From NCBI GenBank assembly GCA_963715985.1, contig CAVQSP010000020.1, forward strand, positions 192,001-256,000: a DNA stretch of 64,000 nt, written 5' to 3'. Source of the DNA: an uncultured Thermoleophilia bacterium (lineage in GTDB: Bacteria > Actinomycetota > Thermoleophilia > UBA2241). Below the pieces are notes generated by a model. That model saw only the letters and a program-made list of their open reading frames with translations. It made no database searches and was not told the DNA's origin. The position numbers and the translations under genes are program-made. This document shows positions 52,926 through 61,544 of the stretch, in pieces; the stretch's first letter is position 1; each line of letters starts with the position of its first letter.

Positions 52926-54317
52926 TCAGGGAACCGGCGCGTGCTCGCAGGCCTTGTGCCCTGCGCTCTCTTCCTTCTCGGCGCTCAGACAGCTCCAGAT
53001 GGGGCTGTACAGGTGATCGACCTTCCGGGAGTACTCGTCGAGCTCGTCCTGGAGGTCGGTGATCATGACGTCGCCGCCCGGGTGCGTAGGCTTGGCTCCG
53101 GTGGCCGCCATGATCTCACGGGCCTGATTGGGGTTGTCGATCCACATGCACGGCATCAGCAGGTTGTGGTTGAACGGCTGCCGCCGCCGGATCTCCTTGA
53201 AGAAGTCCGAGTTGAACGCCTCGAGGAGACTGACGTCGCGGATGTTGTCGGTGGCGAAGTGCGTGAAGATGCACGGCTCCACCCAGCCGCCGCTGTTGAT
53301 GTGCATGTAGTGCTTGCCGGCGATGCAGCCGTTGACCCACGGGGCGTCGCCCCAGAAGTCGATCGGGAAGATCGGCTTGGTGTCGCGGATGCGGTGGATG
53401 TCGATGCGGAACTGGTTCCGCTCCTCCGCCGTCAGCATCATGCTGGTGTCAGGGTCCCGGCCCACCGGCATGTAGAGGAAGTGCCACGCCAACATGGCGC
53501 CCTTGGCGATGAGCGGATCGACGAAATCGTCGCTCACGATGGCCTTCCACGTGTCGCGCGTGACGGTGCACGAGTAGCCGAACAACACGCCGGCATCGCC
53601 CAGATGGTCCATGATGTCCATGACCTGGTCGTGCACGCCGGGGCCGCGACGGTGGTCCGTCAGCTCCGGCGAGCCCTCGAGGCTGAGCATGGGGGCGATG
53701 TTGCCGATCTTGGCGAGCTCGTCGATGGTGTCGTGGTCGAGGAGCGTGCCGTTGGTGAACACCTGGAAGTAGGCGTCCTTGTTCTCCTGGGCGAAGTCGA
53801 GCAGTTCGTCCCACATGAACGGCTCGCCGCCCAGCAGGGTGAACAGATAGACGCCCATGTCGTTGCCCTCGTCCACGATCTTCTGCATCAGCTTGCGGTC
53901 GAGGTCCTGGTCGGGTGCGTACTCCGCCGCATAGCAGCCGTCACAGGTGAGATTGCAGCGCATGGTGGGACTCATGAGGATCGTCGTCGGCGCCTTGCAG
54001 CCCGTCTCGTCGATCAGTTCCCTACGCTTTGCCACGCCACGAAGAAGGGTGTTGACGATAAGACATTCAATAAAACGGTCGCGGCAGCGCGGGCTGAGTC
54101 TGGACGAGACGTGCCTTGCGATAGTGAGCGCCGGGTGGTCCTCCTGGACCTTCTCTGCGACGAATCGCACTGAGCCCTTGTACTGGTCGGGGGTGATCTT
54201 CTCGGCCAGGTTGAATGCCTTGACGATCTTGGTCTTGTCGTCACTGGACGCCAACTTGAGCATCTGGTTGATCACTTGCCTCTGCACCGCGGTGTAAAGG
54301 CCGTCCGTACGGCTCAT
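52926..54317 (-). CDS. Radical SAM protein with SPASM/twitch-type C-terminus
   Basis: CNLTCDGC, GGEPF, FTNGT, GCIAGKHYMHINSGGWVEPC; AGGAGGAG SD. Confidence 0.92.
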   Translation of the reverse strand: MSRTDGLYTAVQRQVINQMLKLASSDDKTKIVKAFNLAEKITPDQYKGSVRFVAEKVQEDHPALTIARHVSSRLSPRCRDRFIECLIVNTLLRGVAKRRELIDETGCKAPTTILMSPTMRCNLTCDGCYAAEYAPDQDLDRKLMQKIVDEGNDMGVYLFTLLGGEPFMWDELLDFAQENKDAYFQVFTNGTLLDHDTIDELAKIGNIAPMLSLEGSPELTDHRRGPGVHDQVMDIMDHLGDAGVLFGYSCTVTRDTWKAIVSDDFVDPLIAKGAMLAWHFLYMPVGRDPDTSMMLTAEERNQFRIDIHRIRDTKPIFPIDFWGDAPWVNGCIAGKHYMHINSGGWVEPCIFTHFATDNIRDVSLLEAFNSDFFKEIRRRQPFNHNLLMPCMWIDNPNQAREIMAATGAKPTHPGGDVMITDLQDELDEYSRKVDHLYSPIWSCLSAEKEESAGHKACEHAPVP

Positions 54318-54607
54318 GTCTCTCCTCCTCTCCTGTTCGCGCGCCCGTGCCCGGCGAGCGCGGCTCCTCGGCCGTCAAATGACCGTACGCAGGGGGAGGT
54401 GAGGCGGCGCGGCGGAGAGACCCCTCCGCCTCGAAACGTCGGCTCCCCCCGACGGCATTCGGGCAACCATGTGAACATTCTAGCACCCGCTCCGCCGGAA
54501 CAGGTGACATTCGTGGCCGCCGGTGCGTGCACCGGCCCGGCGGCCACCCGCCCCGGGGCTGCGTCCGGCGTGGCAACACATGCGTTGCCAATTCGTCTAG
54601 AAGAGTC

Positions 54608-54635
54608 TTATGTTTCCCCGACTCCCAGCCGATAG
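54608..54635 (+). promoter_or_regulatory. Putative sigma28 (FliA/WhiG)-type promoter
   Basis: TTATGTTT-N12-GCCGATAG just upstream of the riboswitch; compare consensus TAAAGTTT-N11-GCCGATAA. Confidence 0.5.
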
Positions 54636-54640
54636 ACACT

Positions 54641-54722
54641 CTTGATAAGGGCAAACCTGTCGTGAGGCAGGGACGCAAAGCCAGAGGTCTTGGATGTTCA
54701 AGATAGCTCGGTTGCCGGATTC
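54641..54722 (+). ncRNA. Cyclic di-GMP-I (GEMM) riboswitch
   Basis: AGGGCAAACCTGTC-GTGA-GGCAGGGACGCAAAGCCAGAGGTCT...AGATAGCTCGGTTGCCG has the GGCAAACC / GNRA / GGGACGCAAAGCC signature. Confidence 0.9.
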
Positions 54723-54866
54723 GATCTTCGCCCTTGCGAACGTCGCCTTCTGCCCCGGACCTCAGCTTCACGCACCCGTCGCACGCCACCGGTGACCCAC
54801 GTGATCTACCGCCGCGACCTCCAGGGGCCGGCCGGTCAAGGGAGTACCGAAGTGGAGGCGAAAGCG

Positions 54867-56501
54867 ATGAACCTCAGGATCATCGTCCTGGCCATCGTGG
54901 CGGTGAGTCTCCTGATGCTGCCCGGTGTGGCGTTGGCCGACAACGAGCCGGCCGGCAAGATCGACACCAGCGTCCAGACCGTTCTCGAGGCGACCGGCGG
55001 CAACGTGGCCGTGCCGGTCATGGTCCAGGCGCCCGGGGCACTCGACCAGGTGCAGGCGACGATCCCGCTGGGCGTGGACGTCACGCAGATCCCGATCGTG
55101 GACAGCCTCGCCGCGTATCTGACGCCCGAGGAGATCAAGGCGCTTGGGAAGGCGAGCTTCGTCACGCAGATCGTCGCCGACAACCTCGTCTTCGGCATGA
55201 GCTACCAGAGCACGATGGACGTCACCAACCTGAGCATCGGGCTCGGCGATGTGGTCGCCCCACGTGACGGCGGGCCGGATGGCGCGGGCGTGACCGTCGC
55301 GATCGTCGACAGCGGCATCGCCACGAACACCGATCTCGCCGCCAGCCGCATCGTCGGCTGGAAGGACTTCGTGAACGGGCAGGAGACCCCGTACGACGAC
55401 GCCGGCCACGGCACCTTCGTCGCCGGCCTCATCGCCGGAGACGGCACCGCTTCGCTGCCGCTCGAGAACGGCGGCACGGCGAGCGTCCAGTTCCGCGGCG
55501 TCGCGCCGGCGGCCAACGTCGTCGGCATCAAGGTCCTCGACGAGGTCGGCCAGGGCCGCACCTCGGCGCTCATCGCGGGCATCGCCTGGGCGATCGCGCA
55601 CAGGAACGACTACGACATCCGCGTCCTCAACCTCTCGATCGGCGGCAACCCCGTGTGCACGGTGACCAAAGACCCGGTCGCCCTGGCGGTCGAGGCCGCA
55701 TGGCGCAGTGGCATCACGGTCGTGTGCGCGGCGGGCAACGAGGGTTCCTTCGGGTCGGGAGGCGTCCTCTCCCCCGGCAACGACCCCTTCGTCATCACCG
55801 TCGGCGCGACCGACAGCCAGGAGACGTCAGCGACCGCGGACGACACCGTGGCCAAGTACAGCTCCGCCGGTCCGACGCTCTTCGACGAGATCGCCAAACC
55901 AGATGTGGTGGCGCCCGGCAACCGGCTCGTGTCGGTGCGCACCGTCGGTTCGTACATCGACACGAACTTCCCCGCCAACGTCATCCTGCTGGAGAGCTAC
56001 GAGACGAGCGCCAGCGCAGGCGCGGCGTCCAACTACCTCATGCTCTCCGGCACCAGCACCTCCTGCCCGGTCGTCGCCGGCGCCGCCGCTCTCATGATCG
56101 GCGAGGATCCGACCCTGACCCCTGACGACGTCAAGGTGCGCCTGATGGGCACCGCCGACCCGGTCGCCGGCGCCACTGCCGACCAGCAAGGGGCCGGCCT
56201 GATCGACGTCGACGAGGCTCTCCAGAGCCCGGCACACTCCACCGGCTACGCCCTCTCTGCGTACCTCGGAGACGGCAAGAAGCACTTCAAGAACGGCGAC
56301 TACAACAAATGGGAAAAGCGCGTGTGGGAGAAGTACGGGTGGACGAAGTACAAGTGGACCAAGTACAAGTGGACGAAGTACAAGTGGACGAAGTACAAGT
56401 GGACTGAGATCGCCTGGACCAAGTACAAGTGGACCAAGTACAAGTGGACGGAGTACGAGTGGGCCAAGTACAAGTGGACCATCCTGATCGAGGGCCAGTA
56501 A
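54867..56501 (+). CDS. Secreted S8 subtilase (AprX-like) with C-terminal Trp-periodic pentapeptide repeat tail
   Basis: Signal peptide (PGVALA); triad VDSG, HGTFVAG, SGTSTS; oxyanion AAGN; GGAGG SD. Confidence 0.93.
   Translation: MNLRIIVLAIVAVSLLMLPGVALADNEPAGKIDTSVQTVLEATGGNVAVPVMVQAPGALDQVQATIPLGVDVTQIPIVDSLAAYLTPEEIKALGKASFVTQIVADNLVFGMSYQSTMDVTNLSIGLGDVVAPRDGGPDGAGVTVAIVDSGIATNTDLAASRIVGWKDFVNGQETPYDDAGHGTFVAGLIAGDGTASLPLENGGTASVQFRGVAPAANVVGIKVLDEVGQGRTSALIAGIAWAIAHRNDYDIRVLNLSIGGNPVCTVTKDPVALAVEAAWRSGITVVCAAGNEGSFGSGGVLSPGNDPFVITVGATDSQETSATADDTVAKYSSAGPTLFDEIAKPDVVAPGNRLVSVRTVGSYIDTNFPANVILLESYETSASAGAASNYLMLSGTSTSCPVVAGAAALMIGEDPTLTPDDVKVRLMGTADPVAGATADQQGAGLIDVDEALQSPAHSTGYALSAYLGDGKKHFKNGDYNKWEKRVWEKYGWTKYKWTKYKWTKYKWTKYKWTEIAWTKYKWTKYKWTEYEWAKYKWTILIEGQ
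56310..56489 (+). repeat. 12 x 15-bp coding tandem repeat (consensus TGGACSAAGTACAAG = WTKYK)
   Basis: TGG every 15 nt from 56310 to 56475; six exact WTKYK units plus variants WEKRV, WEKYG, WTEIA, WTEYE, WAKYK, WTILI. Confidence 0.97.
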
Positions 56502-56542
56502 CAGTCCCGGCTGCGGCACTGAAGCGAGACAGAGAGACGGCC

Positions 56543-58030
56543 GTGCGGCAACGCACGGCCGTCTCTGTTCTCGTGGGCCTTCTCACCGTCGCCGCGGCGG
56601 GGGCGGCGGCGGCGGCGCTGCTCCGGGACCCCGCCCCGCTGACGGTGGACATCGTCGCCTTCGTGATCCTCGCCACGCTCGCCGATCTGCGCGAGATCAA
56701 GATGCCCCTGGTCGGCATCGTCACCCTGTCGTTCGTCCCGGTGCTCGCCGCCCTCATCGTGCTGGGGCTCTGGCCGGCCATCGTGGTCGCAGCCATCTCG
56801 GGGCTCGCCAGCGCCTGGTACATGCGCGACCCGGTCAAGATCGTCTTCAACGTCTCCAACTACATCGTGTCGACCTACCTGGCCGGGATCCTGTACCTGG
56901 CGCTCACTCCGGCAGGCGGCAGCTTCATGAGCAAGGTCCTCCCCACGTTCGGCGCGACCATCGTCGACTTCCTCGTCAACACGGTGCTGCTCGCCCTCGT
57001 CATCGCGCTGGCGAGCAGAAGGAATCCCTTCGCGGTCTGGCGGCAGAACTACCAGTGGGGCCTGCCGAGTTACCTCACCGGGTCCACGCTCGCGCTGCTC
57101 CTCGCCGCCCTGTACCTGTGGCTCGGCGTTCCCGGCATGCTGCTCGCCATACCGCCCGTCTACCTCATCTACTACTCCTACGACATCTACGTGAAGCGCG
57201 CCAGGGAGCGCGTCACCTTCGACGCCGAGCGCGACTCGTTCCACGTGGAGCTCGCCCAGTCGATCGAGCTCCACGACGAGCTCCGCGCCGCTCAGCTCAA
57301 GGTGGCGGCCGAGATCGAGCGCGCGCGGCGCATCCAGACGGACCTCCTCCCCGCCTCCACTCCCGACGTGGCAGGCCTCGGCCTGGCCCAGCACATCGAG
57401 TTCCTCGGAGAGATGGGCGGCGACTACTACGACTACATCCCGTTCGGGGACGGACGTCTGGGCATCGTGTGCGGCGACGTGATGGGCAAAGGTCTCGCCG
57501 CCGCCCTCATCATGGCGATGGCGCGCTCGCTGCTGCACACCGCCATCGCTCCCGGAAGGAGCCCGGGCGCGGTGCTGGCGGAAGTCAACGACGGCCTGGC
57601 GCGCGACCTGGAGGGCCAGCGCCTGCCGTACTTCGTCACGCTCGTGCTGGCCGTGTACGACCCGGCCACCCGGCACCTGGCGGTCGCGGGAGGCGGGCAC
57701 AACCCCCTGCTCGTGGTCTCGTCCGGCGGCGTCGAGCGCGTACCCTCCCGGGGTGCGGCCCTGGGCGTGCGCCCGGGCCTGCAGTTCCCCGAGGACGACG
57801 TGGTCCTCAAACCGGGGGCCACGGTGGCCCTCTACACGGACGGCCTCACGGAGGCCCGCGACCCGGGCGGCGCACTCCTCGGCCAGGAGCGCCTTGAGGC
57901 CATGCTGGCCGACTCGGAGCAGGGCTCGCTCGACGCCACCCTCGAGGCCGTCTGGGGCCGGGTGGCTGCCTTCCGCGGCGCGGCGCCGGCGGGCGACGAC
58001 GCCACGCTGCTGCTCGCGCGTCTTGTGTGA
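56543..58030 (+). CDS. Multi-TM sensor (MASE-like) fused to PP2C/SpoIIE-RsbU phosphatase
   Basis: About 210 aa hydrophobic N-terminus, coiled coil, ARRIQ, GGDYYD, GDVMGKG, YTDGLTEA, GDDATLL. Confidence 0.9.
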   Translation: MRQRTAVSVLVGLLTVAAAGAAAAALLRDPAPLTVDIVAFVILATLADLREIKMPLVGIVTLSFVPVLAALIVLGLWPAIVVAAISGLASAWYMRDPVKIVFNVSNYIVSTYLAGILYLALTPAGGSFMSKVLPTFGATIVDFLVNTVLLALVIALASRRNPFAVWRQNYQWGLPSYLTGSTLALLLAALYLWLGVPGMLLAIPPVYLIYYSYDIYVKRARERVTFDAERDSFHVELAQSIELHDELRAAQLKVAAEIERARRIQTDLLPASTPDVAGLGLAQHIEFLGEMGGDYYDYIPFGDGRLGIVCGDVMGKGLAAALIMAMARSLLHTAIAPGRSPGAVLAEVNDGLARDLEGQRLPYFVTLVLAVYDPATRHLAVAGGGHNPLLVVSSGGVERVPSRGAALGVRPGLQFPEDDVVLKPGATVALYTDGLTEARDPGGALLGQERLEAMLADSEQGSLDATLEAVWGRVAAFRGAAPAGDDATLLLARLV

Positions 58031-58078
58031 GCCACGGCGACGCGAGAGTATCTACCTGACTCCCCACGAAAGGACGTG

Positions 58079-58855
58079 ATGGCCGAGCCCGCGCCCGACC
58101 AGCCCGCCTCCCTGCAGGTGCTCCGGTACAGAAGTGGAGACTCCGAGGTCCACGCCGTCCTCGGCGATCTGGACCCCGAACTCCGTCACGACGATCTGGT
58201 CGCCCACGCGTCCGAAGCGCTCAACAGCGAGACGTTCGTCTGTCTTGCCGTGGCTCAGGACGACGACTTCGTCGCCGATGAGCTCTGCTTCGTGCCCCAG
58301 GGCGAGTGCTGCGAGATCCTCAGCATCCGCACGAGCGGCTGGAAGCGTCATCACGGCGACCACCGACGCAGCCTCGTCGAGATCCTCAACACCCTCGCCG
58401 CCGCCGTCGCCTGCGGCAAGCTCCGCATCCTCGACGGCGCGCAGGTCGACGAGGAGGCGCACGCGGGGGAGCTCGTGCGGACGTTCGACGTCGCCGATCC
58501 GGGCGGCCTCGTCCTCGCGCGCGACGCCGTGAACGAGGTCATGCTGCAAGCGGGCGTCGATGAGATCACCCGGCAGAAGACGATCCTCTGCATCTCGGAG
58601 GCAGTGACGAACATGCTGCTTCACGGGGGCGGCCACGGCTCTGTGACTCTACGGCGGCCGCCCGGACTTCTGCGCATCGTGGTCGCCGACGAAGGCTCGG
58701 GGCTCAACTTCCTGAACTGGATCGATCCTCCCACCGTCAAGGGGCAGGCCTCCATGGGCTACGGCTTCAAGATCATCCTCGACAACCTCGACGCGGTCGG
58801 TCTGCACGCGAGTCAGACCGGCACCACGCTGCTGCTGGACCGCGTCATCGACTGA
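58079..58855 (+). CDS. Anti-sigma factor-type Ser kinase (RsbW/RsbT-like HATPase) with N-terminal extension
   Basis: SEAVTNMLLHG (N box), VADEGSG (G1), SMGYGF (G2), GTTL. Confidence 0.82.
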   Translation: MAEPAPDQPASLQVLRYRSGDSEVHAVLGDLDPELRHDDLVAHASEALNSETFVCLAVAQDDDFVADELCFVPQGECCEILSIRTSGWKRHHGDHRRSLVEILNTLAAAVACGKLRILDGAQVDEEAHAGELVRTFDVADPGGLVLARDAVNEVMLQAGVDEITRQKTILCISEAVTNMLLHGGGHGSVTLRRPPGLLRIVVADEGSGLNFLNWIDPPTVKGQASMGYGFKIILDNLDAVGLHASQTGTTLLLDRVID

Positions 58856-58867
58856 GGCAGGACAAGT

Positions 58868-59179
58868 ATGCTGCGGACATCGATAGCGCAAGGCCCGGCG
58901 CCCACCGTGTTCCTCGCCGGGGAGATGGATCTGGACTGCGCCGACACCCTCCGCGAGGCGGTGGCGGAGGCGGCCCGCGGCGCCGAGACGGTAGTGCTGG
59001 ACTTCGCCGACGTGTCGTTCATCGACTCGTCCGGCACCGGGATCTTCGTGCGTCTCTGTCTCGATCTGAGCAGCCAGGGCACGCCGATCGTGGCGCGCAA
59101 CCTGTCGCCGGCCGTGCGCGGCGTGTTCGACATGTTGCGCGTGCGCGAGCTCGTGGGCGAGGACGTCTTCCCCGGCTGA
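58868..59179 (+). CDS. STAS anti-anti-sigma factor (RsbV/SpoIIAA-like)
   Basis: LAGEMD, VVLDFADVSFIDSSG phosphoacceptor motif. Confidence 0.92.
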   Translation: MLRTSIAQGPAPTVFLAGEMDLDCADTLREAVAEAARGAETVVLDFADVSFIDSSGTGIFVRLCLDLSSQGTPIVARNLSPAVRGVFDMLRVRELVGEDVFPG

Positions 59180-59221: not shown

Positions 59222-61328
59222 TCAGCGCACCGTCAGCCGTGCCTGGGCGACGCTGACCGCTCTGTTTGCGGCCGCGTCGGTCGCCTGCGCTCTCCAGGTG
59301 TACGCGCCCTTGGCCAGCGCCGCCTTGAAGCGATAGGTCAGCGCGACGTTCATCGGACGCGTGCCGAGGGCGATGGTCTTCACCGTCCTGCCGCTCGTGC
59401 GGATCTGGATGGCGACCGCAGCGACCCCACAGCTGGGCTGGTCGTCGTCCACGCGGAACCTGAGGGTCACCGTCTTGCCGGCCCTGACCGAGGCGGGCGA
59501 GGCACTCGTGCTCGGCACCGACGTGTCGATGTTCACGTACCCGGTCCGTGTGGTCTCCGCGGCGCCGAGCACGTCCACGGACGAATAGGCGACGAGGTGG
59601 CTGCCCGCCCCGGAGACCAGGAAGGGCGCGCCATACTGGGTCGCGGTCGCACCGTCGACCGAGAAGTCGGTGCGCGCCACCCCCGCGCCCGCATCCTTCG
59701 CCGTGAGCGTGACGGTGAGGGCGCTGTTGCGCCACGCGCTGGTGGCGCTGGACGCCAGCTCCGGGCTGGCCGTGGTCACCGGCGGGGCGAGGTCGATGTT
59801 GACGTAGGCGGTGTGGCCGGCCTCCGCGTTGCCGGCCGCGTCCACCGACGAGAAGACGACCGCGTGGCTGCCGCCGCCGGAGACGACGAACGGCGCGCCG
59901 TACACGGTAACGGCGCCGCCGTCCACGGTGTAGGTCGTCCGTGCGACCCCCGAGAGGTCGTCCGTAGCCGTGAGCGTCACGGTCAGGGCGCCGGAGATCC
60001 ACCCGCCGGTGGCGCCGGCTGAGAGCGGCGGGGACGCGACCGTGAGCGGCGGCACCTCATCGATGTTCACGTAGCCGCGGCGGGGGACCTCGGAGTTCCC
60101 GGAGGCGTCCACCGAGTAGTACGTGATGAGGTGGCTGCCGGGAGCGCTCACCGCAAAGGGGATGGTGTACACGAGGGGCTCGCCGCCGTCGACGGTGTAG
60201 AAGGTGGTCGCTATGCCTGAGCCGGCGTCACCTGCCGCCAGCGTCAGGGTGACGCCGCTGGCGCGCCATCCGGTGGTGGCGGTCTCGGCCAGCGCCGGCG
60301 AGACAGTGGTCACCGGCGCCAGTCCGTCGATGGACAGCTTGCGCACGGTGCTGTTGGCGGTGTCGGCCACGTACACGTCGCCGGCGGCGTCGCAGACAAG
60401 GCCCTGCGGGCCGCCGAAACGCGCCACGGAACCGGCGCCGTCGGCGCTGCCGGGATCGCCCGGGGAGCCGGCGAGCGTGACCACGCCCCCCGCCCCGTCG
60501 AGCTTGCGCACGCAGTCGTTGTCCGTGTCGGCCACGTAGACGGTGCCGGCGGCGTCACAGGCGACGCCGCCCGGATAACTGAGTCCGGCATCCGGGCCGG
60601 CGACGTCGCTCACAGCCGCCGCCGGGGGCGATGGCGACGATCCTGCTCCCGCCCGTGTCCGCCACGTACACGGTGCCGGACGAGCCCCAGGCCACGCCCA
60701 GCGGCGAGGTGAGACCGGCCGCGGGCCCTGCCACAGTCGTCACCACGCCGGCCGGCGTGATCTTGCGCACGGCGCCGTTCTCGGTGTCGGCCACGTACAC
60801 GTTGCCGGCGGCGTCGCAGGCCAGGCCCGCCGGGTAGCAGAACCGCGCCGCCGCGCCGGCGCCGTCGTCGCTGCCCTGTTCGCCCGACAGCCCGGCGAGC
60901 GTGCTCACGGCGCCTCCGGGGGCGATCCTGATGATCACGTGGTGGTACGTGTCCGCCACGTAGACGTTGCCGTCGGCGTCGCAGGCGACCCCCTGGGGAT
61001 AGCTGAGGCCCGCGGCCGCCCCGGCGATGGTACTGACCACCCCTTTGGGGGTGATCTTGCGCACGGCGTCGTTGTCGGTGTCGGCCACGTAGATGTTGCC
61101 GGCAGCGTCACACGCCACGCCGAAAGGCCCGCTGAACCTGGCTGCCGCGCCCGCCCCGTCGCTGCTGCCCGTGGCCCCGGCGGCCCCGGCAACCGTGGAC
61201 ACGGTCACGCCGGCCGCGGCGGCCCGCGGCGGCGCCGCGGCGGCCATGCACATGCATACGGCCAAGAGCACCACCAGACCCACCACGGACCCCGTGGCCG
61301 GCAGGTCCAGTCGTCGTGGGCGGCTCAC
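59222..61328 (-). CDS. Secreted NHL-repeat + Ig-like repeat surface protein; frameshift near 60612
   Basis: Signal peptide; repeats PxGVACDAAGNVYVADT; three APVTT..YTVDG..G.H....SVD.AGN repeats; C-terminal beta domain. Confidence 0.85.
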
Positions 61329-61544
61329 TCGAACACCTCCGGGGGATCGCCCGGCGGGGCGGCCGGGTGACGTTTGCGCCTGCGCCGTGCCCGTGGACGC
61401 GGTCAGGCAGATGTCCGTCTTCCAGATATCGGCAGCCGTGCGCCACATGCTTAGGCCCGCCGGCCGCCGCCACCGCGCCATGTGAGCGGGACGCCCGGAC
61501 GCTGACGGAGCCTCGGCGCGCCACGCCGCAAGGCACCGACGGCG

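Follow-up and report, generated by a model that had tools for sequence, protein, structure and literature searches.

The DNA analysed here, called the window below, is a stretch of 64,000 nucleotides (nt) from an uncultured Thermoleophilia bacterium (assembly GCA_963715985.1, contig CAVQSP010000020.1, positions 192,001 to 256,000). It contains four closely spaced genes for an S8 subtilase with a tryptophan-periodic tail, a membrane sensor with a PP2C phosphatase domain, a kinase and a STAS protein, which lie behind a cyclic di-GMP (c-di-GMP) riboswitch. We propose that they form a Phr-like peptide-signalling unit, in which peptides from the tail of the protease are read by the sensor, a MASE9-PP2C protein, and we give this reading a probability of about 58%. 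The best-supported step is the binding of a tail peptide to the MASE9 sensor, for which the covariation of sequences argues strongly. That the protease processes its own tail has somewhat better than even chances, and for import of the peptide via an oligopeptide permease the odds are balanced. The features of the operon are:

54609..54635, plus strand: candidate sigma28 (FliA/WhiG)-type promoter, -10 element GCCGATAG at 54628-54635
54641..54720, plus strand: c-di-GMP-I-GGC riboswitch aptamer (Rfam RF03167, 68.2 bits against a cut-off of 59)
54867..56501, plus strand: S8 subtilase, 544 amino acids (aa) (PF00082, E 4.8e-46), with a Sec-type signal peptide (residues 1-24, read from the sequence), a propeptide and D148/H181/N291/S397
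56310..56498, plus strand: Trp tail of period 5 with 12 Trp, the proposed multi-copy peptide ligand; main unit TKYKW
56533..56566, plus strand: conserved 15-bp RNA hairpin just 3' of the protease stop, within the first sensor codons
56543..58030, plus strand: MASE9-PP2C sensor gene as originally drawn (MASE9 and SpoIIE)
56543..57208, plus strand: MASE9 membrane sensor domain, eight helices, predicted S-component fold
56717, 57059 and 57068: covarying sensor residues I59, G173 and S176, respectively, numbered from the GTG at 56543
57449..58030, plus strand: PP2C/SpoIIE phosphatase domain of the sensor (PF07228, E 3.4e-51), metal-binding motifs intact
58079..58855, plus strand: RsbW/SpoIIAB-like kinase, HATPase_c_2 (PF13581; 15-sequence alignment; Atlas)
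58868..59179, plus strand: STAS anti-anti-sigma-type protein (PF01740), candidate phospho-acceptor Ser54 in FIDSSG

An earlier note on this DNA, the original prediction, had drawn the gene order and the gaps of 41, 48 and 12 nt correctly. Its c-di-GMP-I riboswitch scores above the Rfam cut-off, the S8 protease with 12 Trp at period 5 is confirmed by profile match and count, and the kinase and STAS assignments agree with HATPase_c_2 and STAS profile matches. The multi-transmembrane (TM) sensor-PP2C also stands, except that its TM domain is not an unclassified one, but Pfam MASE9.

The evidence for a recognition code comes from 77 distinct tail/sensor pairs of the host family, 15 of 92 having been left out (12 short, 3 identical). 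The third residue of the tail unit is Tyr in 34 pairs and Phe in 43 pairs; Tyr occurs with G173 and S176 of the sensor in 34/34 cases, and Phe with A173 and G176 in 43/43. Columns 173 and 176 are the only two perfectly split columns among 495 sensor columns, and the protease alignment (35 pairs) contains none among 571. On the tree of the whole sensor the Tyr/Phe trait changes five times, and these are precisely the branches on which columns 173 and 176 both change as well, against an expectation of 0.28. The trait changes eight times on a tree of the PP2C domain and four times on TM trees built without columns 173 and 176. The sequence backgrounds in which the switches recur differ visibly, so inheritance as a block does not account for the Tyr/Phe code. 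Residue 59 tracks positions 1 and 4 of the repeat: D59 is found with Arg at position 4 in 21/24 pairs, R59 with Gln in 2/2, and H59 with Ser or Ala at position 1 in 17/17. Independent pairs on strong branches went in the same direction in 3/3, 4/5 and 4/4 cases and never in the opposite one. The chemistry would be sensible: Ser would suit the hydroxyl of Tyr, Asp would suit Arg, and a bulky side chain of the ligand would face a small residue. The proposed covariation of repeat and sensor was therefore found, at particular sensor residues.

Protease and sensor are also linked genetically. The tail region was matched in 50 of 55 host-family genomes, and all four genes are present at 37 of 40 host-family loci, the other three stopping at contig edges. 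A scan of genome contigs for a DNA pattern of eight Trp codons at period 5, which is blind to protease and sensor, gave at least 122 stretches, 80 of them with flanks. Tailed S8 proteases occur in at least 15 of these records, from Actinomycetota, Chloroflexota, Dormibacterota and one labelled Saccharimonadales. Among the pattern-scan matches listed, the next gene carries the same TM domain in 11 of 14 assessable tailed records, with GGDEF-EAL (5), GGDEF (1), histidine kinase (3), GGDEF plus kinase (1) or HD-GYP (1) as output. At two further listed loci a tail fragment at the contig start is followed by the sensor, which occurs in none of the remaining 62. In metagenomes, the sensor follows the tailed protease at 59 of 59 loci with room for it. 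At 30 generic S8 loci, 13 of which had at least 500 nt of room, neither tail nor sensor was found. Among 19 tailed loci at the class level, the sensor is located downstream at 10, divergently upstream at 3 and nowhere nearby at 6. The expected succession of a tailed protease and this TM domain with varying outputs (PP2C, GGDEF/EAL, HD-GYP or kinase) thus extends well beyond the host family.

A second probable source of the ligand was found upstream of other sensors. A sensor-first search with a profile built from protease-linked sensors yielded several hundred matches, and the 120 loci used here are among those with the better scores; L220 (an unpublished genome) and the duplicates L263 and L267 were left out, L245 and L102 being also left out of one tree. 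Directly upstream of the sensor lies a Trp tail at 37 loci, a mini-gene at 50, both at 2 (both doubtful) and neither at 35. Mini-genes were defined as open reading frames (ORFs) of 20-40 codons with a ribosome-binding site, a basic start and a hydrophobic core; the controls gave 0 in 120 reverse complements and 76 in 6000 shuffles. When 20 of the 35 loci without a partner were searched with relaxed criteria, 13 more mini-genes were added. The products of about 24 aa resemble signal peptides and end in x-F/Y/V-K/R-W. Aligned on their own, they show AGGA or a similar motif and then, for example, NFRW, MFKW, TYKW or TVRW, four residues in the register of the tail unit TKYKW/TKFRW. No NCBIfam model scored above its cut-off for five mini-peptides. 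Because tail and mini-gene are largely exclusive and share this register, they replace each other as partners of the sensor. When 219 columns were ranked over 49 mini-gene pairs, column 173 came first (rho -0.73), and the ligand changes together with it in 6 of the 7 cases in which it changes. Aromatic ligand residues are accompanied by a residue other than Leu, Ile or Met at column 173 in 16/16 pairs, and non-aromatic ones by Leu, Ile or Met in 28/33. Four loci (L254, L273, L290, L293) contain two or three tandem, near-identical mini-genes before one sensor, which are, by analogy, the gene-level counterpart of the multi-copy tail.

The TM domain of the sensor matches MASE9 (PF20972) with 33.4 bits against a gathering cut-off of 24.3. 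Eight membrane segments, two of them short, precede the signalling domain according to model helices and hydropathy. The structure model is confident (predicted local distance difference test (pLDDT) score 90.9), and the top 15 rows of its structural matches are all S components, which bind small ligands, from transporters of the energy-coupling factor (ECF) type, with 4m5c as the best one (Z 14.6, root-mean-square deviation (rmsd) 3.4, 188 aligned residues), 5kbw at Z 13.6 (rmsd 3.1, 162 aligned) and a best Foldseek E value of 1.2e-3. The model contains the six-helix S-component core with the L1 hairpin, plus one extra helix at each end. As described in parts of PMC11109136, ECF S components bind their ligand on the outer face, with loops L1, L3 and L5, which close over the pocket, directed outward. 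In all four sensor groups, Lys and Arg are concentrated in the termini and in L1, L3 and L5, and tandem sensor-GGDEF-sensor-HD-GYP proteins were found, which require both sensor termini inside. For these two reasons the modelled pocket probably opens to the cytoplasm, that is, the MASE9 loops would be inverted compared to S components. This agrees with the poor conservation of the outer MASE9 segments noted in part of a preprint (bioRxiv 10.1101/2021.11.05.467447). Residue 59 is located in the L1 hairpin, and residues 173 and 176 lie where helix 6 begins, next to L5.

Of 301 genomes sampled across the phylum, 198 contain MASE9-type sensors (four unpublished genomes are included in this count), as do 86 of 201 genomes of a Bacillota-centred sample. 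A quick sensor tree, which was not used as evidence, places the host-family sensors with mini-gene-linked sensors and four other rows (SH-like approximate likelihood ratio test (SH-aLRT) 93). RmdB of Streptomyces, which has eight TM segments according to part of PMC13232838, was considered as a MASE9-type protein, but a profile search of five large genomes gave only one strong match in each, within ORFs of 450-493 aa, and a single weak match besides, and no claim is made. The second MASE9-type gene of the genome analysed here, with HD-GYP (C11, about 500600-502100, L341), is apparently split into two ORFs and is preceded by a mini-gene of 26 aa that ends in SKIH.

Taken as a whole, the proposed mechanism would work as follows. 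A sigma28-type promoter would drive the operon, with c-di-GMP as its gate. The exported subtilase would cut its own tail, or that of a neighbour, into short Trp-containing peptides, which would reach the MASE9 pocket, most simply via import by an oligopeptide permease; 48 matches to solute-binding proteins of the peptide type (PF00496) occur in the genome. Peptide binding would alter the activity of the fused PP2C, which would counteract the RsbW-like kinase in setting how far the STAS protein is phosphorylated, and the kinase would then hold or free a sigma factor or another target. Elsewhere MASE9 would drive GGDEF, EAL, HD-GYP or kinase domains, with the ligand coming from a tail or a mini-gene of about 24 aa. 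The original prediction had the peptide sensed by the adjacent membrane domain, with which the covariation agrees; because the pocket probably faces the cytoplasm, import is more likely than the surface sensing that it had also considered.

Several observations weigh against this reading. No sensor is nearby in 3 of the 14 listed pattern records and at 6 of the 19 tailed class-level loci, and five MASE9-type genes of large genomes have neither partner upstream. The topology rests on charge counts, and the lining of one pocket by residues 59, 173 and 176 is a presumption. None of the independent-pairs tests is significant alone, and the columns were chosen from the scan. A mini-gene register based on a regular expression misplaced six rows and gave rank 2 for column 173 with 2/7 shared changes, and a hold-out of mini-gene pairs fits the rule for column 173 in 8/13 cases, three of the misses being one clade without the neighbouring Trp172. 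Lastly, an invariant Leu of the protease aligns with what is presumably the S1 pocket base, where the nearest solved relative, the subtilisin-like serine protease 3afg_A, has Gly; this does not favour cutting after Trp, as far as an alignment can indicate.

The last point fits an alternative in which the sensor binds the still-attached Trp units from the cytoplasmic side, before or during export, and reports secretion capacity or a build-up of precursor; the activity of the protease would then remove the signal once outside. It would explain the covariation and the inward pocket without import, the many copies would give avidity, and the translation of the sensor appears to be coupled to that of the protease. 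Nevertheless, we regard it as unlikely: the basic N-terminus of the mini-gene products and the signal-peptidase-like AGGA before the four conserved residues point the motif outward, and the tails of the listed loci sit on proteases with catalytic motifs, which an export monitor would not need. Still less likely is direct sensing from outside, with a pocket open outward or laterally into the bilayer, like that of S components and 5TMR kinases, that binds the released or tethered tail without import. S components do bind their ligands on the outer face (part of PMC11109136), basic aromatic peptides could enter from the bilayer, and a section of the MASE9 preprint (bioRxiv 10.1101/2021.11.05.467447) suggests binding within the membrane, but the core is inverted by eight helices whose termini are both inside, and in each of the four sensor groups the Lys/Arg counts place L1, L3 and L5 on the inner side. 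A cis action of the tail and the mini-genes on the mRNA, in which they would serve as leader or stalling peptides with the hairpin and control sensor synthesis without any protein-level ligand, is very improbable; the overlapping start, the conserved frame and the conserved hairpin would fit, yet residue-level covariation within the sensor would be left unexplained, and at three loci the sensor gene lies upstream of the protease gene in divergent orientation. Equally far-fetched is a structural or anchoring role of the tail (solenoid, amyloid-like or wall-binding) with the sensor as a merely co-inherited neighbour, since, although the strict period of 5 and length changes mostly in whole units would suit it, and inheritance of tail and TM domain as a block could explain part of a general co-change excess (18% of TM columns vs 1.5% of PP2C columns), AlphaFold2 finds no fold for the tail with confidence (pLDDT about 24), the switch has come up repeatedly on differing TM backgrounds with only two columns perfectly split, and single-copy mini-peptides follow the same code.

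The catalytic triad (D148, H181, S397) and the oxyanion residue N291 of the protease are intact. The 12 Trp occupy residues 482, 487 and so on to 537, and the tail is the only period-5 run of at least five Trp in the six frames of the 4.35-Mb genome. Its unit has the register [T/S/A]-K-[Y/F]-[K/R]-W; no Pfam or NCBIfam match was found for it, and all matches in the Atlas comparison were below 0.9. Two or three tailed subtilases lie in tandem at L082, L101 and L203, and at L185, in the host family, the tail is reduced to about one unit and the cassette is intact. S8 proteases with Trp tails of period 6 occur at five loci (L424, L426, L427, L429, L430), one of which has a sensor match, and three of these tails end in a GE/GDD motif resembling the EGQ/NGE end of host-family tails.

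The start of the sensor gene at 56543 has to be revised. The reading frame is open across the protease stop, and a GTG or ATG overlaps that stop in 70 of 96 relatives; for these reasons, the sensor start probably lies at about 56498 or further upstream. The hairpin has z < -2 at 30 of 38 loci, with compensatory changes at 6 of 15 pairs (24 sequences). Fusion of the protease to the sensor by a -1 frameshift would place the phosphatase outside the cell, so translational coupling is preferred to this alternative.

The motifs of PP2C, kinase and STAS protein are intact, and Ser54 is, we assume, equivalent to the phospho-serine of SpoIIAA. NCBIfam equivalog scores for the partner-switch proteins were all below cut-off (weak matches). 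The N-terminal domain of the kinase, of about 130 aa (58079-58480), is conserved in 15 sequences, contains Cys/His-rich motifs and belongs to no known class. RsbU/RsbV/RsbW, SpoIIE/SpoIIAA/SpoIIAB and SiaABC are partner switches that consist of a PP2C phosphatase, a HATPase_c_2 kinase and a STAS protein with an acceptor serine. The set found here is the same; it differs by the extra kinase domain and the lack of a sigma factor gene within the operon. One SigB/F/G gene above cut-off and one SigB-like gene are present elsewhere on the contig, and both are candidates for the output of the switch; FliA/WhiG genes are found elsewhere in the genome. The SigB-like gene lies inside a type IV pilus cluster (C20:112400-116100, L340), in which two more matches to c-di-GMP aptamers, scoring under the family cut-off, lie ahead of pilin genes.

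According to passages in two papers, Rap/Phr systems of Bacillus comprise an exported precursor, maturation by subtilisin-family proteases, a pentapeptide, import and an allele-specific receptor, and some Phr propeptides carry several peptide copies (PMC8767453; PMC11343458). Here, the precursor likewise has a signal peptide, and maturation and re-import are proposed by analogy. Unlike in Rap/Phr, precursor and protease form a single fusion protein that carries about 8-20 copies, and the outputs are PP2C, c-di-GMP enzymes or kinases. Receptors of the Rap/RRNPP type are soluble proteins of the tetratricopeptide repeat (TPR) fold; the putative receptor here is a membrane S-fold domain, and none of the four proteins matched TPR. 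The parts are thus known, but because the unit would work like Rap/Phr with a receptor outside RRNPP, we rate the predicted peptide-receptor pairing as a new kind of system.

The sensor resembles the MASE9 proteins of the preprint (bioRxiv 10.1101/2021.11.05.467447) in profile match, eight TM segments and many outputs; the main text of that preprint gives HD-GYP and GGDEF/EAL fusions, not PP2C as here, gives no ligand and contains neither 'protease' nor 'peptidase'. This preprint is the one paper found that names MASE9. The sensor shares a six-helix S-component core as receptor and an extra N-terminal helix with the 5TMR-LYT kinases BtsS and YpdA, and differs by its eighth helix, the probably inverted topology and a proposed peptide ligand in place of their pyruvate; parts of the same source also note SpoIIE fusions of receptors with this fold, and its main text has no occurrence of 'MASE' (PMC11109136). 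A literature search, with subscription journals and supplements outside its scope, found no description of the Trp tail, the mini-genes or the protease-sensor pairing.

Whether MASE9 domains are in general the receptors of an undescribed, widespread cell-to-cell signalling by Trp peptides in Actinomycetota, Chloroflexota and Bacillota we judge to be about as likely as not. Peptides of 4-5 residues would be released from 24-aa mini-genes by signal peptidase or from the multi-copy tail of a subtilase itself and would be bound in an inverted S-component pocket, with a residue code predictable from sequence, wired to c-di-GMP enzymes, kinases and partner switches. This names a testable ligand for a widespread orphan sensor domain. 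If true, it would be a kind of peptide signalling that is tied to c-di-GMP and has no relation to the receptors of Agr, Com or RRNPP, and it would be surprising that a protease bears its own signal precursor and that a transporter fold is turned inward as a peptide receptor.

The riboswitch was found at 11 of 15 scanned host-family loci and at 0 of 13 distant loci. Among 33 loci with a match to the aptamer core, CCGAT[AG] lies within 35 nt of the core at 25 (genome background 1.7%), and the other 8 have the one-base variant GTCGATA. This conserved -10 element, named after what we take to be the sigma28-type consensus, lends support to the sigma28 connection that the original prediction had held possible. 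Scans for sigma70 promoters and terminators gave matches at chance level. Further conserved motifs ahead of the promoter, GGC[AT]ACAC and CCAATTCGTCTA (54570-54600 and family loci), are possible regulator sites.

Two neighbouring genes flank the operon. Upstream and divergent lies:

52926-54317, minus strand: radical SAM/SPASM gene, no family above cut-off

A role as maturase of ribosomally synthesized and post-translationally modified peptides was rejected for it, every NCBIfam score being below cut-off. Downstream, on the minus strand (59222-61481), a gene for an NHL-repeat surface protein is split into the overlapping ORFs 60555-61481 and 59222-60613, apparently by a frameshift or an assembly error.

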